Assembly: GCA_041554435.1 (NCBI GenBank)
Contig: JBFFLX010000001.1
Coordinates: forward strand, 377-64,376
Source of the DNA: Bacteroidales bacterium
Lineage (GTDB): Bacteria; Bacteroidota; Bacteroidia; Bacteroidales; F082
DNA length: 64,000 nt
Direction: 5' to 3'
Each line of letters opens with the position of its first letter. Position 1 is the stretch's first letter. The notes under the pieces were generated by a model, which saw nothing but the letters and a program-made list of their open reading frames with translations, was not told where the DNA came from and ran no database searches. The translations under genes were made by a program, and so were the position numbers. Below, piece after piece: positions 11,689 to 63,209 of this stretch.

Positions 11689-12920
11689 TGCTTCTTTTTT
11701 ATTGCTGCGATACGCTGCAGAAGAGTGGGGTGGGAGTAATGAAAGAAAACATACAATTTGTGCGGTGTAAGGTTACTCAAATTGTTTACCGATAATTTTT
11801 TAAGAGAATTTATCAGATATTCCCCAAATCCATATTCGTTAGCAAATTCATCAGCCTCAAATTCATTCGACCGGGAAAGTTTATTGGTAGAAATCCCTAT
11901 TAAAAATGAAATTGGAGAGTATAAAAGCCCAAATGCTATAATTCCCATATAAAAACTCGGTTCGATAGCCCCAATGGATTTTGATACTTCCGGATATTCG
12001 AGAGCTATAGATAATAGAAAGAGCATTGCAGCACTTTGGAAAATTGAAATTGCCAAGCCTTTGTATATGTGCTTCTTTTTATAATGGCCAATTTCATGAG
12101 CAAGTACAGCAACTATCTCATCATCTGTTAAATCATTGATTAATGTGTCGAACAATACTATCATTTTTTTTGGGCCAAAACCCGAAAAATATGCATTAGC
12201 TTTCGTACTTCTTTTACTGCCATCTATGGTGTAAATATTTTTTAATTTGAAATTACACTTATATGCGAAATCACTAATCTTTTGTTTTAAACTACCATCT
12301 TCCAAAGGCATTAATTTGTTAAAAAGCGGAACTATTAAACTCGAATAAAACATAGCCATGAAAATCATAAAAGCAGTTAAACCACCCAAAACAACAGGAA
12401 CAAAAAGATTGTTTAACGACAACCATGCCCATAAAATAAAACTCATTAAAGCACCACCAATAAGCACTGATACTAACCATGATTTTAATTTATCTCCAAT
12501 AAACGTTTTAGGAGTGGTTTTGTTAAAGCCGTATTTTTCTTCAATAACAAAAGTAGAATATATTTGAAAGGGCAAAGTAATTAAATCAAATGACAAACCT
12601 ATTATTCCAAAAAACGCAAGTGTCCTAAGGTATTCATTATCAGTAATATCTCTCACTAAGCCATCGATAAATGTAAAGCCACCAAAAAACAGCATTCCCA
12701 GAATTATTAATAAACTAAAAATACTGCTTACAAGAGAGAACTTAGAGGTCTCCTTTTCGTAGAGTTGCGACTTTTTGTATTTATCTTCTTCATAAATACC
12801 ATTTAACTCTTTAGGTAATTCTTCTTTTAAACTTTTAATATTGAGGTAGTCGAGATATTTTTCAAAAATAAAATCGAATATAATTATGCCAATAATAAGC
12901 CAAAACAATATGGTTTCCAT
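11685..12920 (-). CDS. M48 family (Ste24/HtpX-like) zinc metallopeptidase
   Basis: Multi-TM N-terminal region and HEIGHYKKKH zinc motif. Its stop overlaps the convergent sugar-transferase stop by 4 nt. Confidence 0.85.
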   Translation of the reverse strand: METILFWLIIGIIIFDFIFEKYLDYLNIKSLKEELPKELNGIYEEDKYKKSQLYEKETSKFSLVSSIFSLLIILGMLFFGGFTFIDGLVRDITDNEYLRTLAFFGIIGLSFDLITLPFQIYSTFVIEEKYGFNKTTPKTFIGDKLKSWLVSVLIGGALMSFILWAWLSLNNLFVPVVLGGLTAFMIFMAMFYSSLIVPLFNKLMPLEDGSLKQKISDFAYKCNFKLKNIYTIDGSKRSTKANAYFSGFGPKKMIVLFDTLINDLTDDEIVAVLAHEIGHYKKKHIYKGLAISIFQSAAMLFLLSIALEYPEVSKSIGAIEPSFYMGIIAFGLLYSPISFLIGISTNKLSRSNEFEADEFANEYGFGEYLINSLKKLSVNNLSNLTPHKLYVFFHYSHPTLLQRIAAIKKKH

Positions 12921-12947
12921 TTCAAATATTATTTAGTTATTTTAGAA

Positions 12948-15029
12948 TTAATACGAACCCATATATTTTCTGATAAACCATTCAGAAATTAAGAGTATTA
13001 AAATTGTTGCAAGCAAAGCAAACAAATTATTTAAGCCTTTGTAAGTATTTGAATAACTTACTCTTTTGCTTGAATTAATATTATTCAAATAAACGTTAAC
13101 ACTATCATAATTACTAAGTTCAACAAAATGTCCCTGGCTTCTTGCAGATAGTTTGTAAAGTTGGCTAAAGTTGGCTTTTAATTGCTGAAATTCTTTTTTA
13201 TTTTTTGTTACCAGAAATGCTCCCTTATCAGAGAATATTTCCTCTTTATACTTAGTTGTGGCATTGAATTTATAACTTCCTGGTTCTAAGTTTTGTATAT
13301 CCAACTTGTAAATGCCATTGTCGGGTGTGTATATAAAGTCGAATTTCTCATTTTTCTCATTTGTAAGTTGCAGATTTATTTCAGCATCTTCTATGGGCTC
13401 AAATGATTTATTGTAGAATTCAGCTTGTAGGCTAATTTTACCGGGTATGTAGTATTCACCACTACTATGAACCCTTAACCTTCTCTTATCTTGTTTTACA
13501 CTAAGGAATTGAACAATTTTTCCCACAATATTATCGAAATCTGAAAACTCTTTCTTTTCAATATATACATGATTTCTCCACTTCCAAATACCGGTACCCA
13601 TAATTAATGCCTTCTTTATGCCTTCGTCCTCAATAAAATATATTAGTGGAAAGTTCGATTTAATATCATTGATTTTCTGCCATGCTAACACCTTCGAATT
13701 ATCGATTCCAGAAAAATTTAAAAGGGGAATTTGCAGAGGGGGAAGCCTTTCAATTAATTCTTTATCAATATTATCAATCTTGAAATAAGAAAAATTTGTA
13801 TTTATAGAAGCAGTGCTGTTATCGTAATTTCTCAATCCGGAACTTATTCCGGAATTCTGGAAATAATATCTCAAAGTATTTATATCAGTTTGCTTCCCAA
13901 CTATGCCAAGGATTGCTAGTTTATGGGTTTTGGCTTCCTTTATAATTTTTGGAATTTTATAGTTGACAGAGGGTAATTGATGTAAAATTAACAAGTTATA
14001 ATTTTCTAAATTTTCTATTTTATTATAGGCAAATTTTATCTCCACACTATAATTTTTAAAACTTTCCAGCGATTGCTTCAGGGCTGATAAATCAGGATGG
14101 GGAGAGTTTGCTATAATCAGTATCTTTTGTTTCGAATCGATAATATCAATGTAAATATCCGATTCATTGTTCTTGGTGTTGTTTTCTTCAATTTCGCTTT
14201 CAAGTTCAAATCTCAAATGCATTTTACCTGCCTCTTTTGTGATAAATGAGAATGGAATAGTTTTGTTAAATGCCTGATTAGTAATGTCTATGCTTTTGCT
14301 TTCGATAAATTTGCCTTGCTGATAGGTTTTAAGTTTTACTTTTTCGTTTTTCATGCCGAAGGCGGAAAAATTAAATTCAACGGCAATATTTTCATTTAAA
14401 TAGTTAATACTATTATAGCTTATGTCGTTAATTTTTAAGTCGGCTAAACTGGAAGTGTCTCCAACTCCAACAGTAAATATTTTATAAGTACTACCAATAT
14501 TTATGTCTCCGGGTCTTCTGCCCTTATTATAAATGCCGTCTCCAATTAAAACCAGTCCTTCTACTTCAGTAGATGAATAGTGTTTGTCGATATAGTTAAG
14601 TAGTTGAGAGTAATCTGAATAGCTGTCTGTAAAATCCGGGTTTTGAAATTTTATTTCTTCTCCAAAAGAAATGTTTTCAATGTCGAAATCATTTTCGAAT
14701 TCACTAACTGTTTTATTAATATTATCACTTAACTTTTTGTTTATATTGATGGAATCTTTTGAAGCCATCATTGACATAGAATTATCCACAGCAATAATTA
14801 GTTTGGGTTTTTGTATTTTCTTTTGAGTTGTTTTTACGAAAGGTTTTAGTAGCAATAAGCATATCAAGCCAACCGACAGAAATCGGAAGAAGAATAAGAG
14901 ATAATTGTAAAATTTGCTGAGTTTGTTCTTTTTGTTATTCCAATACAAAATTCCAGCATAGATTAGGCCAATTAATACTGGAAATATTAAGGCCCACATC
15001 GGATAATCTATGCTAAATTGACTAATCAT
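12948..15029 (-). CDS. Membrane-anchored protein with a vWA-like DxSxS segment, function unknown
   Basis: N-terminal double TM (BatA-N-like), LIIAVDNSMSM MIDAS-like motif, and a C-terminal TM anchor LFALLATILILLISEWF. Confidence 0.5.
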   Translation of the reverse strand: MISQFSIDYPMWALIFPVLIGLIYAGILYWNNKKNKLSKFYNYLLFFFRFLSVGLICLLLLKPFVKTTQKKIQKPKLIIAVDNSMSMMASKDSININKKLSDNINKTVSEFENDFDIENISFGEEIKFQNPDFTDSYSDYSQLLNYIDKHYSSTEVEGLVLIGDGIYNKGRRPGDINIGSTYKIFTVGVGDTSSLADLKINDISYNSINYLNENIAVEFNFSAFGMKNEKVKLKTYQQGKFIESKSIDITNQAFNKTIPFSFITKEAGKMHLRFELESEIEENNTKNNESDIYIDIIDSKQKILIIANSPHPDLSALKQSLESFKNYSVEIKFAYNKIENLENYNLLILHQLPSVNYKIPKIIKEAKTHKLAILGIVGKQTDINTLRYYFQNSGISSGLRNYDNSTASINTNFSYFKIDNIDKELIERLPPLQIPLLNFSGIDNSKVLAWQKINDIKSNFPLIYFIEDEGIKKALIMGTGIWKWRNHVYIEKKEFSDFDNIVGKIVQFLSVKQDKRRLRVHSSGEYYIPGKISLQAEFYNKSFEPIEDAEINLQLTNEKNEKFDFIYTPDNGIYKLDIQNLEPGSYKFNATTKYKEEIFSDKGAFLVTKNKKEFQQLKANFSQLYKLSARSQGHFVELSNYDSVNVYLNNINSSKRVSYSNTYKGLNNLFALLATILILLISEWFIRKYMGSY

Positions 15030-41335: not shown

Positions 41336-41488
41336 TTAATGAAATATATCCTTAAAGTAGAAAAAAATTAGGTTAATTCTGCACATATACTTAATTTTCT
41401 ATTTCTTATTAAACAAAGCAATGATGCGATAATAGCATTAATTTCTTTGCTATATTTGAGGATATTTATTTACTCAATTGAAAAGTAC

Positions 41489-41968
41489 ATGAAAAATCCC
41501 TATACTAAGAAATCATCTGTATTCGCATTACTGCAATTTAAAATGCTCGGATTCCTTTTATTAATTGTTGGTATTCTATATTCTTTTAGTAATATATTAG
41601 TCGGCTTATCGTTCACAATTATAGGTATAAGTCTGGCCTCTTTATCCGATGGAATTCAAATTGATTTTGAAAATAGAATGAGCAGAGATTATATGTCTGT
41701 ACTCTGGTTAAAATTTGGAAAATGGCATAAATTGTCTGAACCCGATTATATAACTGTTTTTATACAGAACTTATCACAGGGGATGAATATGACTTCAATA
41801 ACTTCTAATAATCCTTCTAGTGATTATAGAGTAAGTATAATAGGAAAAGATGATTCTCAAACAGATGCAGGATTATATAAAAAAAAGGATGTTGCCCTGA
41901 AGAATGCTGAAATGCTTGCCGGGAAATTTGGAATTAAATATATAGATAAAACCAATCCTAAAAATTAA
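41489..41968 (+). CDS. Hypothetical membrane protein
   Basis: Two TM helices followed by a soluble tail, with no recognisable family. I prefer the ATG at 41489. Confidence 0.4.
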   Translation: MKNPYTKKSSVFALLQFKMLGFLLLIVGILYSFSNILVGLSFTIIGISLASLSDGIQIDFENRMSRDYMSVLWLKFGKWHKLSEPDYITVFIQNLSQGMNMTSITSNNPSSDYRVSIIGKDDSQTDAGLYKKKDVALKNAEMLAGKFGIKYIDKTNPKN

Positions 41969-42861: not shown

Positions 42862-45597
42862 TTATTCTATTAAAGCAACTGCCTTTGATGAATCCGAATT
42901 CATATAAATAGAAAGCGAACTCTGTTTAAATTCACTTTTGATTTCTATGAGTTTAACAACGTTTTCAAGATTTTTTCTTTCAGGTACAACTTCATGAAGC
43001 TTATTCTTTGAGTGCAATAAAAAGTTATCATTAAATATATTATCCTTCTCGTCTGGATAAAGTGGAATATACTTTATATCTGCTTCTACCAAATCCTGAA
43101 AGAAATGTGTTCCAAACGAAAGGTCAGGAACATAGTTGTTTTTCTTTCTGGCTATCTCAATTAAGGCTGCTGTATTATTAATTTCGGAATATGTAACATT
43201 AACACCCAGTTTAATATCGCCTCTCGATCCCCATCTTCCGGGTCCCATAAGGATGAATTTTCTCTTTTCCAGAATCTGGTTTAACTGCCCAATAGTTCTT
43301 CCTACTTCCAGCAAATCCTCATGATTTTCTAGTTTGGAATATTCTTCAGGGTCAACGTAAACAATATGAGAGATGTTTTTAATGATACCATTAGTAATAT
43401 ATTTTCGGGCACTGAAAATCACTTTTTCTTTGACAATATTTTCCGGAATATTTACAATTGAAGTGTCATCGCTATGACTTTGTGAACGGCATTGAAGTAA
43501 ATAGAAGTCATTACCATCGTGAGCGAACTCAATATCCACCGGATGACCGTAGATTTCTTCAAGGCTATTTAAAATCTCTTTTGTTTGATTCATGAAATCA
43601 GTTCTTTTAACCAAACCTTCGAAGTTAACTACAAAATCATCCTTATTGAAATCGGTTCCCAAAGGACGTGCAGGTTGAATATAATCCTGTTTTATTACCG
43701 AGATAACCCGGCTAAACATTGGGTATTGTTTGCCGTATCTTTTAAGTAATGAGTCTATTGCGATTGTTTCAAACTCGCCGGTTTCCAAATTTATAAGGTC
43801 GATAAATTTAGGCGAGTATTTTAATATTTCGGCTATGCTAACATTAACTCTCAAATTGGGTTGTCCCGGAGAAAGTAGCACGGGATAATCATCTTTCAGC
43901 CTGTCGACGGCTCGAGTTCCGAGTCCCGGAACTATTCTTACTAAGCCATCTTCTGCCTTAATTCTCTCCGACCATCGATATTGATTTCTGCTGAAAGCAA
44001 GTCCTGCAAAAGCAGGAAAATAATATGGACCTACCTTGGTTCCTACAACCTCTTGTATTAAAATACCCATCTCCTCATGGAAATCCAAAAGATTGTGTGC
44101 AGAGCGATATTCAATGGGGTCGGGACTAAAAGTAGAGGCATAAACCTCTGAAATAGCCTCGCTTAATTGCTTCAGTCTTTCCTCTTTTGTACCCTGATTG
44201 GCAACAAAAAGGCTTTTGTATTTTCCGGCAAAAACTGCTCCAATTCTGTCTTCAAGCAAACTCGAACTTCTCACAATAAGTGGTTTGTCGCCAAAATCTT
44301 CTAGAGCCATTAGCAGACCTTTTACAATGTGCGGTGGCTGTAGCGAATTTTTAAAAACATGAACCACATATGGGTATTCCTGATGTACCTGTTTTATATC
44401 TTTATATTTCTGCTCAAGAATCTCATCAAGACTGTTATAACTCATAAAATTTAACAGTCCGTCGGAAGTAATATACCAGGTTTTAGGAGTTTTTATGTTG
44501 GCAAGAATTTCCTTGGATTTCGATGCCTGATTTAAAATTTTTTCTGCTAAAAATAAACCGGCACTTTTGCCGCCAAGTTTACCGTAACTAATAGTAGGAG
44601 AGATTGTTTTATGAAACAGAGTGCTAAAGTCCTCTATATTAATATGTGATTTTGCAATCTTTATAAACTCAAACTGATCGGTTAATATTCTTCTTATCAG
44701 GGCTATGGAAAAACTTTTCCTTCTTGCTTCGGTGAGTTCCATCATACCCGGAGCCATATGGTGATATCTTTCCACGGCAGAACTTATATCAGATAGTGAA
44801 GACCCCGGATTTTCCAATACCTCAGATAAAAAGCCCGATCTGTCTTCTTTTGTCCATTTTTGTATGTGACTAATAATTTCTTTTTGCTCTATATTTTTGC
44901 TGGCCAGTTCGAAAATATCGTATGACAATTTTATTATATCAGTTCCTTCCTGGTTATGATAGGGCTTATTAACTTCGCCTGAAAAAATTTCTGTGCTTTT
45001 AAACAAAGGGCTAAATTCATAAAGCAGATTATCAGCTTCGCTTACTCCTGACCAGCATAAATAATTTATCATTTTACGGGATAATCTTACCAGTAGTTTA
45101 GGGTCGGTTTGTGCCAGCATATCCAAAACTATTGTCCACTCCGATTTACTGTCGGCCCCCTGATTAGTTTCGAAAACAATTTTAAGTTGTTCGTGAAGTA
45201 GTTGTAAGCCAATCCTTTCTGCTATGCTTTCCATTAACCTTATTTCCTCTTTTAAAAAAGGTCCGAAGAAGGATTCTGGCATTTCTTTTTCATAGAAAAC
45301 ACTAATTGTTCCAACTTTTTCATCCTGCACTTTTATATCAACTTCTAAAACCCATGGAGAAACGTTAAAATTCTTAGAAAGGAATTCGCCTTTTCTGCAC
45401 GCTATCTTAGCATGAGTTATTTCAGGATATTGAAAGCCCGGAGGAATTTTATTTACAATTTCGGTGAAGGATTCGTCACTTAAATTTGTAGTTCTGTTAA
45501 GTATTTCCTGAATGCTATAAATACAGTTAAGTTCTTTTGCTCTTTCCTTTAACTCAGCAATAATCTTTTCTACGGGCTTATCTTTTTTCATGGTCAT
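42862..45597 (-). CDS. PEP/pyruvate-binding (PPDK_N ATP-grasp) domain protein, 911 aa, with an N-terminal sensor-like domain
   Basis: KLGGKSAGL and LIVRSSSLLEDRIGAVFAGKYKS are PPDK_N motifs. The N-terminal KELNCIYSI...YPEIT...FLKEEIRLMESIAERIG domain is seen in sensor proteins. The C-terminus carries GPGRWGS...FGTHFF. Confidence 0.75.
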   Translation of the reverse strand: MTMKKDKPVEKIIAELKERAKELNCIYSIQEILNRTTNLSDESFTEIVNKIPPGFQYPEITHAKIACRKGEFLSKNFNVSPWVLEVDIKVQDEKVGTISVFYEKEMPESFFGPFLKEEIRLMESIAERIGLQLLHEQLKIVFETNQGADSKSEWTIVLDMLAQTDPKLLVRLSRKMINYLCWSGVSEADNLLYEFSPLFKSTEIFSGEVNKPYHNQEGTDIIKLSYDIFELASKNIEQKEIISHIQKWTKEDRSGFLSEVLENPGSSLSDISSAVERYHHMAPGMMELTEARRKSFSIALIRRILTDQFEFIKIAKSHINIEDFSTLFHKTISPTISYGKLGGKSAGLFLAEKILNQASKSKEILANIKTPKTWYITSDGLLNFMSYNSLDEILEQKYKDIKQVHQEYPYVVHVFKNSLQPPHIVKGLLMALEDFGDKPLIVRSSSLLEDRIGAVFAGKYKSLFVANQGTKEERLKQLSEAISEVYASTFSPDPIEYRSAHNLLDFHEEMGILIQEVVGTKVGPYYFPAFAGLAFSRNQYRWSERIKAEDGLVRIVPGLGTRAVDRLKDDYPVLLSPGQPNLRVNVSIAEILKYSPKFIDLINLETGEFETIAIDSLLKRYGKQYPMFSRVISVIKQDYIQPARPLGTDFNKDDFVVNFEGLVKRTDFMNQTKEILNSLEEIYGHPVDIEFAHDGNDFYLLQCRSQSHSDDTSIVNIPENIVKEKVIFSARKYITNGIIKNISHIVYVDPEEYSKLENHEDLLEVGRTIGQLNQILEKRKFILMGPGRWGSRGDIKLGVNVTYSEINNTAALIEIARKKNNYVPDLSFGTHFFQDLVEADIKYIPLYPDEKDNIFNDNFLLHSKNKLHEVVPERKNLENVVKLIEIKSEFKQSSLSIYMNSDSSKAVALIE

Positions 45598-47336
45598 GAT
45601 TTTTGTTTTTCAATAAGTCCGAGTCCTTTATGCCCATCAACTTTTATTCTGATATTGTTTTCCAGTTTCAAATGGACCAGATTTTCAGTTTCAAAAAATG
45701 GCTTTGTTTCTTCCAGCCATTTCCAATCGAAAGGGTAATTTCCCGAGTAGGGGATTGAAAAATAAATCGTTTTAAAGGCGCTCAAATTATGGAAAAAATG
45801 TGAGCCCTGACTAAGTTCCGAATTCATTCCTTCCAAAGGTGCTTCAATGATAACTTTTGCATTAGAAATTTGTCCGAAAGTTACAGGTATTCCTGCCCAT
45901 GGGTCAGATGTTCCCCAACGCCCAAAGCCTATCAACACATATTGTTTTTCTTCCTGTGCAAAATTACTGTTTAAATTATCGATTTCCATTGCAATTTTAG
46001 CAGAAGTTTTAGCGTCTAATTTATTCTTTTTCAGGAATATAATATCGTTAATGGTATTTACATCGCCATTGCCCAGAACATTAGGGGAGGAGCAGAGTAG
46101 ATTTTCTGCATGAAGTTCTTCAGGCTCCACACTTACTTCCTCATCATACATATTCATGGGGCGCAACTGAAGGAAACCGAATTTATGGTTTTTATTAAGT
46201 TCATCGATTTCCAGTGTAAACTCAATTTCAACGGGATTTCCTAGTTCTTCCTGGCATTTTTTTCCAAGTTTTTCACATAAATCTGCTAATTGAACTTCTC
46301 CTAAACGGAGCAAAGGAGCAAAATTTAAAAGTCTTGGCCCTTTTTTTCCTGTTCCCATAACCACTCTGCCGGAAGATGAATCTAGTGTGGATGCTATCTG
46401 CTTTAGAGTTCCATGCTCCTCCGCTGTTTCCAAATCTTTCGATTCCAGGAACTCAGTTTCTTTTAAAGGGTCGTATTTATAATTCCCCGACATATTTACA
46501 GCCCAGAATTTATTCTGAGTGTTTTTCATCATCTCACTAAGATTATAAAATGGAGGATCGGTTTTTGGAAAAGCAGGAGAAAAAAACCAGGTGGGCTCGT
46601 TTTCAACGATAGTTTTTCCTAGTCCCAGGGCCAGATTTACAACACCATGCTCTGGTTTTCCATTTCCAAAAGAGTAAAAATTAAACGACCTTATTACCCC
46701 TGAAACCTGTGGATAAAACAAACTATCTCTCTTCTTTCCTGCAACCTCCTGAATAATGATTGCCATTCTTTCATCTTCAGTTTTATACTTGGTAGCCCTC
46801 ATATAATCGGATGCGTTCTTAAAGAATGTTGACGCATAAACAAATTTTATAGCTTCCACCAGTTTATTAAATCGTGAACTCACATCTGCCTGATTATTAG
46901 GGGTCATCTTAGTTTCGTAAATGCCGGCAAATGGTTCGTTTTTTGCATCTTCCAGCATACTTGACGATCTGATGGCTATAGGTGTTTTGAGTTCCGAAAT
47001 CAATTTTCTTAAATCTCCCAGAATTTCAAAGGGTAGTTCTGCCTTTTGAAATGCATAGGCTTTTCTGTCGTCGGGAAGTTTTGATAAGGCAATTTTGTAG
47101 AGGTTATTTCTCTTCATAAACTGCTCGAAAATTCCGGTTCTTATTACACAAAGAGCAGGTACAGTGATTTCAAATTCACTAAAATTATTTTCGTTTCTAA
47201 AATCTTGTAATATATTTTTTACTCTTAATAGTCCGCTTGCTTTACCGCCTATGGCTCCATCCCCAATAAAGGTAATTTTATTCTCTTTATTGAAAAAAGA
47301 ACTTTCCTTGAAGGCAACTAAATTATTATTTTCCAT
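45594..47336 (-). CDS. PEP/pyruvate-binding (PPDK_N ATP-grasp) domain protein, 580 aa
   Basis: GAIGGKASGL and IAIRSSSMLEDAKNEPFAGIYET motifs. The C-terminus carries GFGRWGT...QGSHFF. A 4-nt ATGA overlap joins it to the downstream paralog. Confidence 0.75.
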   Translation of the reverse strand: MENNNLVAFKESSFFNKENKITFIGDGAIGGKASGLLRVKNILQDFRNENNFSEFEITVPALCVIRTGIFEQFMKRNNLYKIALSKLPDDRKAYAFQKAELPFEILGDLRKLISELKTPIAIRSSSMLEDAKNEPFAGIYETKMTPNNQADVSSRFNKLVEAIKFVYASTFFKNASDYMRATKYKTEDERMAIIIQEVAGKKRDSLFYPQVSGVIRSFNFYSFGNGKPEHGVVNLALGLGKTIVENEPTWFFSPAFPKTDPPFYNLSEMMKNTQNKFWAVNMSGNYKYDPLKETEFLESKDLETAEEHGTLKQIASTLDSSSGRVVMGTGKKGPRLLNFAPLLRLGEVQLADLCEKLGKKCQEELGNPVEIEFTLEIDELNKNHKFGFLQLRPMNMYDEEVSVEPEELHAENLLCSSPNVLGNGDVNTINDIIFLKKNKLDAKTSAKIAMEIDNLNSNFAQEEKQYVLIGFGRWGTSDPWAGIPVTFGQISNAKVIIEAPLEGMNSELSQGSHFFHNLSAFKTIYFSIPYSGNYPFDWKWLEETKPFFETENLVHLKLENNIRIKVDGHKGLGLIEKQKS

Positions 47337-47369
47337 AATATTAATAATTAAAGATTATCAAAAAATACT

Positions 47370-48656
47370 TTATACCCAACCTCTGTCGTGACAGGCTCTT
47401 GCGACTCTGTCAACGGCTATTGCGTAGGCGGCATCTCGTAAATTAAGATCGTTTTCCATGGCAAAATTACTTACAGATATATATGCTGATGTGATTTTTG
47501 TATCCAGTTTGCTCAATACTTCTTCTTTTTCCCAATAATAATTCATATTGCTTTGAACCTGTTCGAAGTAACTACAAATTACCCCTCCCGAATTAGCCAG
47601 AAAATCGGGTATGGTAAAAATACCTCTTTCATCAAGATAAGCTGCAGCCTCGGTACTGGTGGGGCCGTTTGCTGCTTCTGCCACCATCTTTACGTTTTTA
47701 GAGATATTGTGCATATTGTCAGCTGTAATGGAGTTGTCGAGTGCAGCAGGTATTAAAATATCAACATCTTGTTCTAACCACTTTTCTCCTTCCAGTATTT
47801 CATAACCTAAACTAATGGCTCTGTCTTTATTAATTCCGCCGAAAATATCTGCTATTGACTGAAGTTCTTCCAAAATAACCCCATCCTTTTTTCTGTAGGC
47901 AAGTGCTTTTTGTTCCTTTTGATCCCAGGCAGAAACGCAAATTACTTTGCCTCCCATTTGTTGGTATAACTCAATAGCATATTGTGCCACATTACCGAAT
48001 CCCTGTATGCTTGCCGTGGTTTTATCAATTTCGAGGCCTAACTCTTTGAGGGCTTCTCTAACATTTATAATAACTCCATATCCTGTTGCCTCTTTTCTTC
48101 CCAGAGAGCCTCCCATTCCCACTGGTTTGCCGGTTAAAGTCCCCGGAAGTCGCTCACCCTTAATGGTTTCGTATTCGTCGAGCATCCAGAGCATATGTTG
48201 AGCATTGGTCATAATTTCGGGAGAAGGAATGTCCATATTCGGACCTAAGTTAGCCGAAAGATGCCTTACATAAGCGCGGCAAATTCTCTCTTGTTCAAAA
48301 GCGCTCAAATCGTGAGGGTCGCAAATAACACCTCCTTTAGCACCCCCCAAAGGTATGTCAGCAACAGCAGTTTTCCAGGTCATCCACATGGCCAGTGCTC
48401 TGATGGTGTCGGCAGTCTCCTGAGGATGAAATCTTATTCCTCCCTTTGCCGGACCCCTTGCATCATTATGTTGTATGCGATAGGCTTTAAAAACTTTTAC
48501 ACTGCCATCATCCATTTGTATTGGAAACTGAAAGTGAAACTCCTTCATAGGATACCTTAATAAATCGCTGGTGGCTTTGTCCAAATCAAGCATCTCAGCA
48601 GTTTTGTCAAATTGCTTTTGTGCACTGGCAAAGGGATTATATACAGTAGTGGCCAT
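47370..48656 (-). CDS. gdhA: Glutamate dehydrogenase (Glu/Leu/Phe/Val dehydrogenase family)
   Basis: Catalytic region IPLGGAKGGVICDP and Rossmann motif IQGFGNVAQ. 428 aa. Confidence 0.92.
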   Translation of the reverse strand: MATTVYNPFASAQKQFDKTAEMLDLDKATSDLLRYPMKEFHFQFPIQMDDGSVKVFKAYRIQHNDARGPAKGGIRFHPQETADTIRALAMWMTWKTAVADIPLGGAKGGVICDPHDLSAFEQERICRAYVRHLSANLGPNMDIPSPEIMTNAQHMLWMLDEYETIKGERLPGTLTGKPVGMGGSLGRKEATGYGVIINVREALKELGLEIDKTTASIQGFGNVAQYAIELYQQMGGKVICVSAWDQKEQKALAYRKKDGVILEELQSIADIFGGINKDRAISLGYEILEGEKWLEQDVDILIPAALDNSITADNMHNISKNVKMVAEAANGPTSTEAAAYLDERGIFTIPDFLANSGGVICSYFEQVQSNMNYYWEKEEVLSKLDTKITSAYISVSNFAMENDLNLRDAAYAIAVDRVARACHDRGWV

Positions 48657-48762
48657 TTTTTGTCTTATTAATGTTTAAATATACGGAACATCAAAATTAC
48701 GAAAAACTTGGATTGGAATGGCCTTTAATTTAATTATTGTTAAATAATTAACAAATATTGAA

Positions 48763-50483: not shown

Positions 50484-51257
50484 TTATTTATTAAACATAA
50501 GTGCTATTCCAAATTCCACCCAGGATAATTTCATATTTATTTCTTTATCTGTTTTATTGCTGGTCCAATAATAATTAAAAAACCGTTCCTGATATCTTAT
50601 TGTTGGGTTACTATAAGTATAAGAAGCAGAAATTTTCATATTCGTATTTTTCCCTACAGAGTAGTAAACTGCAATTTCTGGTTTGAAAATTAAGGATGTC
50701 CCTTCTCCTTCAAAAACTTTGTAAGTTGCAGGAGAGGATTCATTTTGAGTCTTGTAAAACCTATGTTCTATAGAAGGTCGACGCGAAAAAGAAATACCAG
50801 TTAATAAAGTAAAGTCAAATACCAGATCTTCTGTTTTAATTTGATAGTTTGGTCCAATATAAAAGTTTGTAAACCACCATCTCCCATAGTCCACCTCATG
50901 AATATAACCCGTTGGAATATTAACATAATCAAATATTGTGTCACTCGACTTATCGTAGCCAAATATGTTAATCCCCAGGCCTATTTTCATGCCAATATTT
51001 TTCTTTCCATGACAACCGTAAAAAGCATTCAAACTTAAACCTGTATTTCCGTACCCTGATTTTTTTGAACTTAAATCCTTGGAGGAGAGATCTCCAAGAG
51101 GGAATGCAATATTGCTTCCAATTTCAAGAAAAAACTGCGAAGAATCGATTTTAGTCTTTGTTTGGGAAATTGATGTGGAAGAATTAAACAGCATTAATAA
51201 AAATATCAAAATCAAATAATTCGGGTTAAATCTGTTAAGGTTTCCTAAAAATTTCAT
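50484..51257 (-). CDS. Putative outer-membrane beta-barrel protein
   Basis: Signal peptide, alternating beta-strand pattern, Gly/aromatic-rich. Confidence 0.45.
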   Translation of the reverse strand: MKFLGNLNRFNPNYLILIFLLMLFNSSTSISQTKTKIDSSQFFLEIGSNIAFPLGDLSSKDLSSKKSGYGNTGLSLNAFYGCHGKKNIGMKIGLGINIFGYDKSSDTIFDYVNIPTGYIHEVDYGRWWFTNFYIGPNYQIKTEDLVFDFTLLTGISFSRRPSIEHRFYKTQNESSPATYKVFEGEGTSLIFKPEIAVYYSVGKNTNMKISASYTYSNPTIRYQERFFNYYWTSNKTDKEINMKLSWVEFGIALMFNK

Positions 51258-52285: not shown

Positions 52286-52828
52286 TTATGCTTTAATAAC
52301 ATTTTTCATTCCCATGGTAATGGCATCTTCATTCAAAGGAATGAGTTTATGATACCTTTCGGGAAGTGATTTTTTAAGTCCCTTGATAACATTTTCAAGT
52401 TTTACTATCGGCTTAACCTTAAGGTAACCGCCAAGAACAACCATATTAAATATTTTGGTATTGCCCATTTCTGCAGCAAGTTTGGCGCCTTCAATTTTAT
52501 AGATAGTGATATCTTTACGTGAAGGATGTTTTGAAATTCCGTTAGGATCGTAGAGCAAAACTCCACCCGGTTTAACAGTTTCTTCAAATTTATCCATCGA
52601 TTGCTGGTTGAGGATGATAGCAGTATCGTAAAATGTAAGAGTTGGAGAACTAATTCTCTCATCGCTTACGATTACGGTTACGTTTGCAGTACCACCTCTC
52701 ATTTCTGGTCCGTACGATGGCATCCAGCTAACTTCCTGGTCTTGCATAATTCCTGAGTAAGCAAGTATTTTACCCATCGAAAGCACGCCTTGTCCGCCAA
52801 ATCCGGCTATAATAATTTCTTCAGTCAT
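52286..52828 (-). CDS. 2-oxoacid:ferredoxin oxidoreductase, gamma subunit
   Basis: IIIAGFGGQGVLSMGKILA N-terminus, 180 aa, last gene of the OFOR operon. Confidence 0.88.
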   Translation of the reverse strand: MTEEIIIAGFGGQGVLSMGKILAYSGIMQDQEVSWMPSYGPEMRGGTANVTVIVSDERISSPTLTFYDTAIILNQQSMDKFEETVKPGGVLLYDPNGISKHPSRKDITIYKIEGAKLAAEMGNTKIFNMVVLGGYLKVKPIVKLENVIKGLKKSLPERYHKLIPLNEDAITMGMKNVIKA

Positions 52829-52851
52829 TTTTCCAATTTTTAAAATATTAC

Positions 52852-53643
52852 TTACTTTTCAATTAATTTACCATCAACTTTGATGTCGCCAAGTGGATAG
52901 AAAGGAAACATATTTTCTACCATCCAGTCGTTGGCATCATTAGGAGTCATTTTCCAACCTGAATTACAGTTTGAAACTATTTCAATAAATGTTGTTCCCG
53001 GAACTCCATTAATTTGATTTTCAAATGCTTTCTTTACTGCCCTTTTTGCTTTACGAACAGCAGCAGGTGTGTGAACTGCCTGACGTGTAACATAAGTTGT
53101 ACCAGGTAGTTGTGCTACCAATTCGGTGATTTTTAAAGGATGACCATTCAATGCGGCATCTCTTCCATAAGGAGAAGTAGAGGTTTTCATTCCTATCATG
53201 GTTGTAGGAGCCATCTGGCCGCCTGTCATACCATAAATACCATTATTAATGAATATCATAACAATGTTTTCACCTCTGTTACAAGCATGTATGGTTTCTG
53301 CTGTACCAATTGCTGCCAGGTCGCCATCACCCTGATAGGTAAACACAAGTTTACCGGGCCATAAGCGTTTTATTGCTGTGGCCAAAGCGGGTGCTCTACC
53401 GTGAGCGGCTTCCTGCATGTCAATATTCATAAATTCGTAGGCAAGTACCGAACAACCAACAGGAGCAATTCCTATAGTATCACCTTCTTTACCTAATTCT
53501 TCAATAACCTCCATGGTTAACCTGTGTGCAGTTCCATGACCGCATCCCGGACAATAACTGAGTGTTTTGTCAGTCATTAACTTGGTTTTCTCATAAACCA
53601 GGTTTTCCGGCTTAATTATTTCTTGTACTGAAAGTTCTGCCAT
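52852..53643 (-). CDS. 2-oxoacid:ferredoxin oxidoreductase, beta (TPP-binding) subunit
   Basis: CPGCGHG and the TPP motif GDGDLAAIG...NNGIYGMTGGQ. Confidence 0.9.
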   Translation of the reverse strand: MAELSVQEIIKPENLVYEKTKLMTDKTLSYCPGCGHGTAHRLTMEVIEELGKEGDTIGIAPVGCSVLAYEFMNIDMQEAAHGRAPALATAIKRLWPGKLVFTYQGDGDLAAIGTAETIHACNRGENIVMIFINNGIYGMTGGQMAPTTMIGMKTSTSPYGRDAALNGHPLKITELVAQLPGTTYVTRQAVHTPAAVRKAKRAVKKAFENQINGVPGTTFIEIVSNCNSGWKMTPNDANDWMVENMFPFYPLGDIKVDGKLIEK

Positions 53644-60563: not shown

Positions 60564-63209
60564 TTAAAGGCTTAACCGATATGACAATTTCAGCAGAAAA
60601 ACATTGCTGGCTTTCGCATCAGCCAGGTTTTTTATTCTGTCGCTAAGGTAAAAACTTCCTTTTTCTGTGTCGCCATTTCGACCCTGCGACCATACGAAGT
60701 ATGCTGTGGAGCCGGGAACGTACTCCCATCTTACAACAAAATTACTTCTGAATTCATAAAAACTGAAATCAGGATTATCAAAACTGTAATCAGTTATACC
60801 ATCCTTGTTTTCATCAATATTATAGAGGTTATCTTCTGCATTATAGGATATTTCATTATCCGTAAAAACATGAAACTGAGAATCAAAATCTTTATTTCCT
60901 GCATCAGTAACTTTTTTAAAGTTGTGATAGTCGCCTGAGAAAAAGAAAGGTTGCCCCCAATATTGTATAGATAAGTCTGGTGTTATGGAATAATTAATTC
61001 TAAAATTAAATTGAAGAGTTTTACGTTTTAAATTAGAAACCACATAAACGTTCTCATTATCAAAAGTTTTTGTGTCGATATAAATATATCCCTCTCTATC
61101 GTAAACATAAACGGGGTCGATTGATAGTTCTAAACTTGGTAAAGGGCGGTATGATATTTCAAATCCAACATCTTCGGCTACACGCCATTTATTTTTACCA
61201 AAACCATTAAAATAAAATGCGCTGAAAACAAACTTTTTACGTGAATCAGTACTAAATGAGTAACTCATTCGGAGCATTGATGGCGTATACAAAGCAGGTC
61301 CGCCTCTTAACTGATGTCTGTCGATATCAAAAAACTGATAATTATAGTTTACGTGGAAAAACCAATAGTTTTTAAGTTGGAAATTTGTTGAAAGTTGTGC
61401 GCCGGAATAGATATATCTTCCGCCAAAATCCCATCCTGCCCAATGAGAGAAGTTTATATGCATATTTCGGAAAACAGAAAACGGTTCCCATAATATGTAG
61501 TTAATCCAAATCGATTCATCAAAATAATCTGCTCGGTGCATAAATCCCATATCACTTACCGACATGCCCGGCGATTTAAATGAACTGCGTATGCCATATC
61601 TCCAGTGGCCTTTTCCGATTTTTGCAAAACGGAATGAGCTTCCCATACCCGAAAGTTGCTGCAAACTACTGTCAACACTGCGATATGTTAAGTCAGGGCG
61701 TTGGTAATATCTTTGCGGTGCCATTTGCCTTTCTATTATCGCCAAACTATCACCTTCAATAAAACTTCCCATCAGGTTTGCCTGAAAATTATATGTCCTG
61801 TCTTTCCAATAATGATTAAAATCAAGACCACCTGTATATGCAGAGTTGGGTAAAAAAAACAAGGCACTGTCTTTAACAGATCTGTTGGTGGCTGTAATCA
61901 TTCCGCCAACTATTGTTTTTCCCTCATTGAAATCCTTTTGTAAACGCGTGTTAAAATAATTAGTCAGAGGTTCAACTATTTGTTTGCGTTCTAAACCACT
62001 ACTGTCGATCAAGGCATATTCATTGTTTGTAACACTTTCCATAATTCCTATGGACCAGCCGCTTTCAGTTTTGCCCGAAAGTTTAAAGGCACCCAATATT
62101 CTTGTGTGGTCGGGTGTATTAATATATTCATCATCAGCAATATCCGCTTCGTATTGTGGCCTGCGTCCGATACGTCTTGAATAGAAAAGTCTTTCGGTAC
62201 TAAAAACATCACCTGCCACCAGAGGGAAATTATAAATATTAGAACCTTCGGTAAAAAATGGTCGTTGCTCTCTAAAATAACTTTCGAAGGCCGATAAATT
62301 AACTTCCGAAGGGTCGGCTTCAACCTGACCAAAATCCGGATTTATTGTAAAGTTTAGAGTAAGGTTATTGCTAACAGCAATTTTTCCATCTAATCCGGCA
62401 TTATTTATCCATTTTGTACCCGTTTCATAGGGATTGCCTTCCTCTTTTACGCTTTTTTCCAGTCCTCCCATTATATAAGGAGTAAGAGCAATTTCTTTTT
62501 TTGGTTTTATATTTTCAATACCATGAAGTTCTCCCCACAAGCTTACCCATCCTGAAGCTTCCTGAGGCACCATCTGCCATACTGAAAACTCTTGTTCACG
62601 AAATAAAGTTCGCATAACTTCCAAGCCCCAAACCTTTTTTGCTTTGGCAGAAAATCGTAACTGATTTAAGGGAATTTTCATTTCGGCAACCCATCCTTCT
62701 CCGTCAACGGTAGTTTTTACTTCATAAACTGGTTTCCAGGTATCATCCCAGTCAACATCGTTGGTAACAATCCCATCGGCTTTTACTCCTGCCGCATTTA
62801 CACCAAAACTAAAGCCAGTTCGTTTATCATTATAACTGCTAAAAGCAATGGCAACCCAGTCGCCGTCTGAGTTTCCTCTTCTGCTTAAGCGACGTTCAAT
62901 TTTCTCGGGTTCTGTATCAAACGCCCTTATTGCAACATATAAATTATTGTCGTCGTAAATAATTTTAAAGGCAGTTTGCTGCGATGGTTTTTGATTTTCA
63001 AAGGGTTCTTTTTGGGTGAAATCGCCCGACCATTCAACGATGTTCCAGATATCTTCAGTTATCAAGCCATCAATTACCGGCGTTTCACCTTCTGTTTTTT
63101 CGGTATTATACACTCTAACCTGAGCCTCAGTGATTAATGCTGACAAGCATAAAATGCATAATATTAGTAAGTTGCGATTCTTTGACATTAAACTATTAAA
63201 TTGCTGCAA
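60564..63209 (-). CDS. DUF5916 / CBM9-like-domain outer-membrane protein
   Basis: Signal peptide. The N-terminal IDGxxxExxWxxxxW pattern is CBM9-like. It has a large beta-rich body and the C-terminal beta-signal LKLSYRLSL. The family call is from memory. Confidence 0.6.
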   Translation of the reverse strand: MQQFNSLMSKNRNLLILCILCLSALITEAQVRVYNTEKTEGETPVIDGLITEDIWNIVEWSGDFTQKEPFENQKPSQQTAFKIIYDDNNLYVAIRAFDTEPEKIERRLSRRGNSDGDWVAIAFSSYNDKRTGFSFGVNAAGVKADGIVTNDVDWDDTWKPVYEVKTTVDGEGWVAEMKIPLNQLRFSAKAKKVWGLEVMRTLFREQEFSVWQMVPQEASGWVSLWGELHGIENIKPKKEIALTPYIMGGLEKSVKEEGNPYETGTKWINNAGLDGKIAVSNNLTLNFTINPDFGQVEADPSEVNLSAFESYFREQRPFFTEGSNIYNFPLVAGDVFSTERLFYSRRIGRRPQYEADIADDEYINTPDHTRILGAFKLSGKTESGWSIGIMESVTNNEYALIDSSGLERKQIVEPLTNYFNTRLQKDFNEGKTIVGGMITATNRSVKDSALFFLPNSAYTGGLDFNHYWKDRTYNFQANLMGSFIEGDSLAIIERQMAPQRYYQRPDLTYRSVDSSLQQLSGMGSSFRFAKIGKGHWRYGIRSSFKSPGMSVSDMGFMHRADYFDESIWINYILWEPFSVFRNMHINFSHWAGWDFGGRYIYSGAQLSTNFQLKNYWFFHVNYNYQFFDIDRHQLRGGPALYTPSMLRMSYSFSTDSRKKFVFSAFYFNGFGKNKWRVAEDVGFEISYRPLPSLELSIDPVYVYDREGYIYIDTKTFDNENVYVVSNLKRKTLQFNFRINYSITPDLSIQYWGQPFFFSGDYHNFKKVTDAGNKDFDSQFHVFTDNEISYNAEDNLYNIDENKDGITDYSFDNPDFSFYEFRSNFVVRWEYVPGSTAYFVWSQGRNGDTEKGSFYLSDRIKNLADAKASNVFLLKLSYRLSL

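Follow-up and report, generated by a model that had tools for sequence, protein, structure and literature searches.

A glutamate dehydrogenase gene (gdh) and two genes for paralogous ATP-grasp proteins form a unit that recurs across many bacterial phyla, and both ATP-grasp proteins end in a previously undescribed domain with an invariant histidine. We describe this three-gene unit in a window of 64,000 nucleotides (nt) from a Bacteroidales bacterium (assembly GCA_041554435.1, contig JBFFLX010000001.1, positions 377 to 64,376), where gdh (47370-48656) is followed by genes for a protein of 580 amino acids (aa; 45594-47336) and one of 911 aa (42862-45597), head-to-tail and all on the minus strand. 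Tentatively, we read the two proteins as a sensor-gated phosphotransfer pair that acts on or with glutamate dehydrogenase (GDH), conceptually like the mycobacterial protein VadK. GDH connects carbon with nitrogen metabolism, and its post-translational control in bacteria is poorly understood beyond a few lineage-specific cases. The unit lies beside gdh in at least several hundred species, mostly uncultured heterotrophs of sediment, subsurface and soil, and is a concrete candidate for control of GDH or for an ATP-dependent reaction coupled to it.

The gdh-linked gene pair across phyla

The first gene of the unit encodes a 428-aa GDH of the hexameric type, assigned from Pfam, a PDB match and the conserved adjacency described below. 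The product carries both ELFV domains (PF02812 ELFV_dehydrog_N, E 4e-53; PF00208 ELFV_dehydrog, E 2e-66), matches Thermococcus GDH (1euz) over residues 7-428 in a search of PDB sequences (E 2e-115), and scores 445 bits with the NCBIfam model GdhA_Arch, under the equivalog cut-off of 750. The two downstream genes were defined from their open reading frames (ORFs), Pfam, AlphaFold2 models and Foldseek: the 580-aa protein consists of a PPDK_N ATP-grasp and the new C-terminal domain and has no sensor domain, while the 911-aa protein comprises a GAF-like domain, a helical region, PPDK_N and the new C-terminal domain. The common orientation, the 33 nt between gdh and the 580-aa gene, and the ATGA stop/start overlap at the 580/911 junction (AAA TCA TGA / ATG ACC ATG) are exactly as the first-pass annotation had given them, and no terminator-like site was found at the gene junctions inside the trio.

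That annotation had taken the linkage to gdh as a hint of a role in amino-acid or 2-oxoglutarate metabolism or its regulation and had proposed counting it across genomes; the count is far stronger than was guessed. With each species represented by a single genome, a scan identified relatives in at least 583 genomes; the 80 best loci, almost all from metagenome-assembled genomes (MAGs), were compared. These span Bacteroidota, Calditrichota, Ignavibacteriota (including Melioribacter), Planctomycetota, Acidobacteriota, Gemmatimonadota, Chloroflexota, Zixibacteria, Eisenbacteria and others. Among loci with sufficient flanking DNA, 66 of 69 have a gdh ortholog (59-86% identity) next to the 580-type gene. 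It nearly always lies immediately upstream in the same orientation and is divergent in a few Planctomycetota; the 911-type gene adjoins the 580-type gene in 62 of 65. Adjacent gdh is missing from L003, L005 and L016, and the second paralog from L012, L034 and L050. At a further Bacteroidales locus (L084:4372-10174), on a contig of ~4.8 Mb, a Gp49/HigB-like toxin gene and a helix-turn-helix antitoxin gene lie between the paralogs, with a C25 peptidase gene, not gdh, upstream.

The two paralogs vary together across these genomes, with a pairwise-distance correlation of r=0.78 and equal mean divergence, and GDH tracks them less tightly (r about 0.55-0.59). In several clusters the 580-type and 911-type proteins are fused in frame into single proteins of 1484-1654 aa. 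The fusions P0241 (1639 aa), P0242, P0243, P0292 and P0329 contain two PPDK_N and two C-terminal domains, and the GAF domain with its KELNCIY start directly follows the first module. These sequence comparisons, with the ATGA overlap in the window, suggest that the two paralogs co-evolve and work together.

The association extends to a second class of GDH. Seven loci encode an E. coli-like GDH with 31-33% identity to the window protein, and five of these seven genes have their own paralog with PPDK_N and the C-terminal domain immediately downstream on the same strand (L067:16461-20747, L051:6957-11040, L058:15903-20006, L068:14381-18512 and, on the minus strand, L036:4963-8118). Some of the paralogs in these second modules (~1000 aa) begin with a response-regulator receiver and a DUF5752-like segment. 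Within the system-linked GDHs (n=50), 16 Ser, Thr, Tyr or His positions are invariant, and only two of them, His115 and Tyr285, differ in Thermococcus GDH 1euz. In the window GDH, His115 lies in the sequence DPHDLS and Tyr285 in a surface segment that is ~9 aa longer. Judged against this single outgroup, both residues are possible leads to a target site.

Both downstream proteins match one Pfam family only, PPDK_N (PF01326), at residues 28-409 of the 580-aa protein (46110-47255, minus strand; E 8e-36) and residues 340-719 of the 911-aa protein (43441-44580, minus strand; E 4.9e-54). The two are paralogous through the C-terminal domain (26% identity over ~530 aa, E 2e-37). PEP-utilizers (PF00391) and PEP-utilizers_C (PF02896), the mobile and barrel domains of phosphoenolpyruvate (PEP) synthase and pyruvate phosphate dikinase (PPDK), gave no match in permissive scans of the whole proteins (E<=1) or of the isolated C-terminal pieces (E<=10), and each protein ends ~170 aa past the ATP-grasp. 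Profile searches with all three families thus bear out the first-pass description of two PPDK_N proteins that lack the PEP/pyruvate barrel, and the signature motifs it quoted are present. Since they have neither the swivel signature nor the TIM barrel, both proteins cannot make PEP.

The AlphaFold2 models have a predicted local distance difference test score (pLDDT) of 87 and a predicted TM-score (pTM) of 0.86 for the 580-aa protein, and 78 and 0.67 for the 911-aa protein. With these full-length models, Foldseek against the PDB returned top 50 lists dominated by the ATP-grasp, whose nearest structures are rifampicin phosphotransferase (RPH; E 1e-11 to 1e-12), HpeI (9goj), PEP synthase and PPDK. 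Profile alignment by hhalign of the 580-aa family with E. coli PEP synthase (PpsA) (E 3.5e-5) brings the catalytic motifs together (AIRSSSMLED..FAG with AVRSSATAED..FAG, VEIEF with MDIEW, LQLRP with VQARP). In RPH, mutagenesis has identified Lys22, Arg117 and Thr136 as residues required for placing ATP so that transfer to the histidine can occur (PMC4844700). The equivalent residues are K32, R123 and T142 in the 580-aa protein and K344, R443 and S462 in the 911-aa protein. These residues, with E370/E372, Q390 and R392 in the former and D688/E690, Q702 and R704 in the latter, were found in the translations and are invariant, as are H513 and H831 of the following domain, in family alignments of 59 (580-type) and 57 (911-type) sequences. 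Because the residues essential in RPH and the Mg/ATP motifs are invariant in both families, both paralogs look, from their sequences, catalytically competent and not like decayed copies. The label "RPH-like" given to them earlier holds for the ATP-grasp and fails for the rest: NCBIfam models of PEP synthase, RPH and PigC/RedH match the ATP-grasp only and far under cut-off (for RPH, NF041857, 30.4 and 22.9 bits against 999), and homology to the RPH swivel was undetected.

The shared C-terminal domain

Following the ATP-grasp, both proteins end in an alpha/beta domain of ~170 aa that belongs to a previously undescribed family and stands at the place of the phosphohistidine swivel in PEP synthase and PPDK. 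It covers residues 410-580 of the 580-aa protein (45597-46109, minus strand; GFGRWGTSD...E498...SQGSH513FF) and residues 726-911 of the 911-aa protein (42865-43422, minus strand; GPGRWGSRGD...E814...SFGTH831FF), as delimited from alignments and the AlphaFold2 models. An alignment of 49 sequences from many phyla, drawn from both paralog families and more distant branches, has 12 invariant positions in two motifs, GxGRWG..G..E and SxG[ST]HFF, and the histidine of the latter is invariant in all 49. The proposal of a novel shared domain in both proteins was therefore borne out, and its histidine is conserved in the orthologs. A two-sequence profile of the domain, run exhaustively against 1.84 billion representatives, recovered 1703 clusters (E<=1e-3), or 1218 with the stricter threshold of E<=1e-10, and PPDK_N directly precedes the domain in every architecture examined.

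In both models the histidine begins a helix after the least confident, flexible loop. His513 (codon 45798-45800, minus strand) is the first residue of helix 513-520 and follows the only loop with pLDDT<50 (507-512). His831 (codon 43105-43107, minus strand) stands at the start of helix 830-839 and follows a low-confidence loop (828-831), and the GRWG loop is likewise flexible in the 911-aa model. By position and modeled local structure, a phospho-carrier role for this histidine is plausible. The order of elements predicted in the 580-aa domain is hairpin, helix, strand, loop, strand, loop-His-helix, strand, hairpin, which appears to resemble the strand and helix order of swivel domains.

The first-pass annotation had gone further and proposed that the domain is a divergent swivel in which G-(S/T)-H replaces the canonical GGxTSH; no direct test made here bore out that part of the proposal. 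The domain profile returned only noise from all PDB sequences. Alignment by hhalign gave a probability of <=1% with E. coli PpsA and PtsI and of 0.3% with a seven-member profile of real but divergent swivels, among them those of RPH, enzyme I and PEP synthases from bacteria and archaea as well as the C-terminal domain of pyruvate kinase. A profile Smith-Waterman comparison of domain and swivel with column shuffles gave z=0.37, with the histidines unaligned. Swivel chains that lack an ATP-grasp (1zym, 3eza, 2fm4 and 5woy in the PDB) were absent from the Foldseek top 50 of both models; the recovery of GAF-only chains from the 911-aa model served as an internal positive control. Matches of the 580-aa model to thioredoxin-fold, USP and Mre11 chains had a Foldseek probability <0.3 and give no fold assignment. 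The motif is SxG[ST]HFF in the place of the GGxTSH of PEP synthase and PPDK, the canonical C-terminal swivel of RPH was not found by hhalign, and the VadK-like plan of an ATP-grasp with a canonical phosphohistidine domain applies in its first half only, since the domain that follows the ATP-grasp is unrecognisable as PEP-utilizers. Homology of the domain to swivel domains is undemonstrated.

Full-text literature searches found no description of the trio, the C-terminal domain or the architecture. Relatives carry the database names "hypothetical", "PEP/pyruvate-binding domain-containing protein", "pyruvate, phosphate dikinase" and "nucleotidyltransferase domain-containing protein". The ATP-grasp itself belongs to an established superfamily, of which some members (RPH, PigC, HpeHI and VadK) are already known to lack the barrel; what is new are the domain at the carrier position, the obligate pairing of paralogs, the linkage to GDH, and the accessory nucleotidyltransferase (NTase) and phosphoesterase described below. 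A domain family at the phosphohistidine position would widen the PPDK/PEP synthase superfamily beyond these members, and would give a function to thousands of proteins now named "PEP/pyruvate-binding domain-containing protein", "pyruvate, phosphate dikinase" or "hypothetical".

Sensor and accessory domains of the large protein

The 911-aa protein begins with a GAF-fold domain (about residues 8-144; 45166-45576, minus strand), recognized from the secondary structure of the AlphaFold2 model and from Foldseek, which matched it with probability 0.99-1.00 and TM-scores of about 0.5 to 3p01, 4g3k, 4g3v, 8jrc, CodY and PDE5A. The suspicion that the KELNCIY start marks a sensory-type N-terminus was therefore well founded. 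Pfam GAF has no match in the window protein, and in the ortholog P0181 it reaches E 1.5e-3 (19.5 bits against a cut-off of 22.4). The structural neighbors are the GAF domains of Nlh1/Nlh2, NifA, CodY and PDE5A. Because the GAF domain of NifA binds 2-oxoglutarate and that of CodY binds branched-chain amino acids, a metabolite of carbon or nitrogen metabolism is, by analogy, an attractive candidate for the signal. An all-helical region with no Pfam match (about residues 153-335; 44593-45141, minus strand) is modeled between this domain and the ATP-grasp.

What the window holds is a reduced, minority short form of a larger system: of 56 complete orthologs of the 911-aa protein, 51 carry at the C-terminus a minimal NTase of ~150 aa with an intact G-S...D-x-D motif (for example P0126, P0148, P0154 and P0181, residues ~930-1059). 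In Pfam the tail matches NTP_transf_2 and Polbeta; 1wot is its best match in the PDB, and its nearest named relative is MntA (27.8 bits, under the family cut-off of 60). A gene for a calcineurin-like metallophosphoesterase of ~290 aa is present at L035 (14891-15790, minus strand) and 44 other loci, for example L008:14937-15818; in 41 of 55 loci it follows the 911-type gene directly, tail-to-tail. Only the NTase-tailed form is accompanied by it, at 41 of 50 long-form and none of five short-form loci (Fisher p 6e-4, a value that ignores phylogeny). Neither the window protein nor the relative closest to it, from a Marinilabiliales MAG (L002, 86-88% identity), has the tail or the metallophosphoesterase. 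Around the trio the metallophosphoesterase alone recurs, and no further pathway genes are conserved there. In several MAGs with MFD-prefixed isolate names the 911-type gene is broken into two or three overlapping ORFs (L032:11659-14867; L055 and L057, around 11700-14950), probably by assembly indels and not as real pseudogenes.

Possible roles and genomic setting

The reading that we tentatively prefer would run as follows. The ATP-grasp would attack the beta-phosphate of ATP, as in PPDK, PEP synthase and RPH, and the beta-phosphoryl group would be moved, via a pyrophosphoryl-His intermediate, to the invariant His513 or His831 of the new domain, where the carrier histidine would cap a helix after a flexible, Gly-containing loop; an invariant Gly-rich GxGRWG loop with its Arg, and separately an invariant Glu, belong to the same domain. 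The GAF domain of the 911-aa protein would gate phosphorylation in response to a metabolite, and the phosphorylated pair, as a heteromer, would transfer the phosphoryl group to GDH or bind GDH in a phosphorylation-dependent manner, so that flux between glutamate and 2-oxoglutarate is tuned. In most lineages the NTase tail and the convergent metallophosphoesterase would add a second layer, probably as a writer/eraser pair. The alignment to PpsA, anchored on the ATP-grasp, lends the carrier some support, as it continues across the linker and reaches the first swivel hairpin. We favor a regulatory over a catabolic role because of the sensor and receiver domains, the tail resembling protein AMPylases, and the paired phosphoesterase. 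A bolder proposal, which we consider doubtful, would make the trio the core of an undescribed, phylum-spanning system of post-translational GDH control, in which a sensing pair with a non-swivel phosphohistidine domain modifies or clamps GDH, complemented in most lineages by an NTase writer and a phosphoesterase eraser, as a GDH counterpart of GlnE/GlnD. If modification of GDH were confirmed, the whole system would be new.

GlnE and GlnD modify glutamine synthetase and PII, and AceK modifies isocitrate dehydrogenase. The likeness to these is conceptual, a sensor-controlled modifier dedicated to one metabolic enzyme, and modification of GDH is here hypothetical; many orthologs of the window system also have the NTase and a hydrolase that could reverse its action, although there is no sequence relationship. 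A direct precedent for the proposed action on GDH is VadK (Rv1127c, M. tuberculosis), a regulatory histidine (di)kinase derived from PPDK without the barrel, which phosphorylates itself on His422 and binds both the synthase and the dehydratase of the methylcitrate cycle (PMC13400623). VadK and the window proteins have in common a PPDK_N ATP-grasp without the PEP/pyruvate barrel, a proposed role as regulators of metabolic enzymes, and the position of the histidine (phosphorylated in VadK, invariant here) in the domain after the ATP-grasp. VadK, however, is a single protein with a canonical swivel, without GAF, NTase or phosphoesterase partners, and its targets belong to the methylcitrate cycle, whereas the window system has a new family at the carrier position, two paralogs and GDH as the linked enzyme, and is described here from sequence and models. 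MntA, a type VII toxin-antitoxin adenylyltransferase that AMPylates a protein, is nearest to the NTase tail of the orthologs; that tail is absent from the window and is fused to a 900-aa enzyme, not paired with a HEPN toxin.

Among enzymes acting on small molecules, RPH-Lm (5hv1, 5fbs; PMC4844700) offers the best structural match to the ATP-grasp and is likewise a barrel-less dikinase, with a non-pyruvate acceptor, but it has a large rifampicin-binding domain, a canonical C-terminal swivel and another domain order. HpeHI/AcvAB and phenylphosphate synthase resemble the window pair as dikinases spread over two polypeptides and encoded in an operon with their pathway, and HpeI (9goj), their ATP-grasp subunit in the Hpe system, is a strong structural match. 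They differ in that ATP-grasp and canonical swivel sit on separate subunits and the substrates are phenolic small molecules, whereas both window proteins bear a full ATP-grasp and the new domain. PpsA and PPDK have a homologous ATP-grasp (RSS..ED..FAG, DIEF/W and QxRP align) followed by a His-bearing domain, but the window proteins have neither their PEP-utilizers swivel signature nor their PEP-utilizers_C TIM barrel. Genuine genes for PpsA, PPDK or PtsI were found neither in the window nor in the 80 loci.

Several observations weigh against a phosphotransfer pair dedicated to GDH. All tests linking the new domain to known phosphohistidine domains were negative, and the histidine might act as a catalytic base, bind a metal or have a structural part instead. 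Two complete catalytic modules are hard to explain for a simple kinase. Some genomes keep the pair away from gdh (L003, L005 and L084), and L012, L034 and L050 have the 580-type gene without the 911-type gene. The synteny would fit equally well a reaction on small molecules that draws on a substrate or product of GDH, and this is the main rival to the regulatory model: the pair would be a heteromeric "X, water dikinase" phosphorylating a metabolite that GDH produces or consumes (derived from glutamate or 2-oxoglutarate, or some other small acceptor), the metallophosphoesterase would later remove the phosphate, and the sensor domains would simply regulate enzyme activity. We regard it as unlikely. 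RPH, HpeHI/AcvAB, phenylphosphate synthase and PigC/RedH are precedents. RPH and HpeI give the best structural matches, weak NCBIfam matches point to PigC/RedH and PEP synthase, and the Hpe and Acv pathways combine two-subunit dikinases with a kinase-then-phosphatase logic. The invariant Gly-rich/Arg loop and Glu of the new domain could form an acceptor site, and tight operon linkage to a metabolic enzyme is typical of pathways. Yet the metallophosphoesterase is the only conserved neighbor that such a pathway could claim; GAF, receiver and a fused NTase resembling protein AMPylases are more typical of signaling than of catabolic enzymes; and in the 580-aa protein the shared C-terminal domain is the sole candidate for binding a substrate. 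To our knowledge, moreover, there is no phosphorylated derivative of glutamate or 2-oxoglutarate that requires a dikinase.

Whether the C-terminal domain is a true, highly divergent member of the PEP-utilizers family whose GGxTSH has decayed to G-(S/T)-H is a question that cuts across the other readings, and we think such membership distinctly unlikely. The domain does stand where a swivel would, beyond the QxRP motif and a linker of ~20 aa; the full-length alignment to PpsA is co-linear into the first swivel hairpin (VLGNG..I.DI against RIGAGPVKVIHDI); and Foldseek aligns PPDK over ~250 columns more than RPH and may thereby reach the PPDK central domain. Set against this are the uniformly negative results from Pfam, the PDB profile search, hhalign (PpsA, PtsI and the diverse swivel profile) and the shuffle comparison, and the absence of the four swivel chains from the Foldseek lists though GAF-only chains were recovered. 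The domain's lack of a detectable relation to any phosphotransfer domain would suit proteins that carry no phosphoryl group at all: the ATP-grasps would be ligases, ATP pyrophosphatases or nucleotide sensors, the C-terminal domain would serve oligomerisation or effector binding with a structural or metal-binding histidine, and the complex could scaffold GDH or control it allosterically without covalent chemistry. RPH mutants keep an ATP pyrophosphatase activity uncoupled from transfer (PMC4844700), and VadK has been proposed to act by binding (PMC13400623). We nevertheless consider a non-carrier role very unlikely, since S-x-G-[ST]-H-F-F, GxGRWG and the full ATP-grasp set are strictly invariant in both paralogs over very large distances, which argues for chemistry, and since both motifs lie in flexible loops, typical of catalytic or mobile elements. 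Hardly credible, finally, are degenerate remnants of ppsA/ppdK, suggested by the loss of two of the three canonical PPDK domains, or an anti-phage defense module beside gdh by chance, suggested by weak matches of the ortholog NTase tail and phosphoesterase to the PADLOC candidate systems PDC-S09 and PDC-S10. The pseudogene idea, already raised in the first-pass annotation as a possible refutation, was rejected on conservation and model confidence, as the proteins are intact, full-length, residue-conserved and modeled with high confidence, with relatives in at least 583 species genomes and 1703 representative clusters; as for defense, PADLOC gives no family for either window protein, and across phyla the linkage is fixed to a housekeeping gdh and not to mobile or defense islands.

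In the window itself, 4 nt separate the end of the 911-aa gene from a convergent gene for an MscS-type channel. A scan for sigma-70 promoters and terminators gave counts no higher than the shuffle level, and the organism probably uses promoters of the Bacteroidota type. The -7 consensus of these promoters is TAnnTTTG, and the sequence TAATTTTG (48692-48699, minus strand), 36 nt upstream of the gdh ATG, fits it and is a candidate -7 box. Two flanking ORFs, of 173 aa (41447-41968, plus strand) and 257 aa (50484-51257, minus strand), have no Pfam match at E<=0.001. An 881-aa ORF (60564-63209, minus strand), suspected from its length of encoding PPDK, encodes an unrelated DUF5916/CBM9 protein. About 3.6 kb upstream of gdh and on the same strand lie genes for subunits of a 2-oxoacid:ferredoxin oxidoreductase (52286-53643, minus strand; POR gamma-type and thiamine pyrophosphate-binding), a possible 2-oxoglutarate-related context for gdh.

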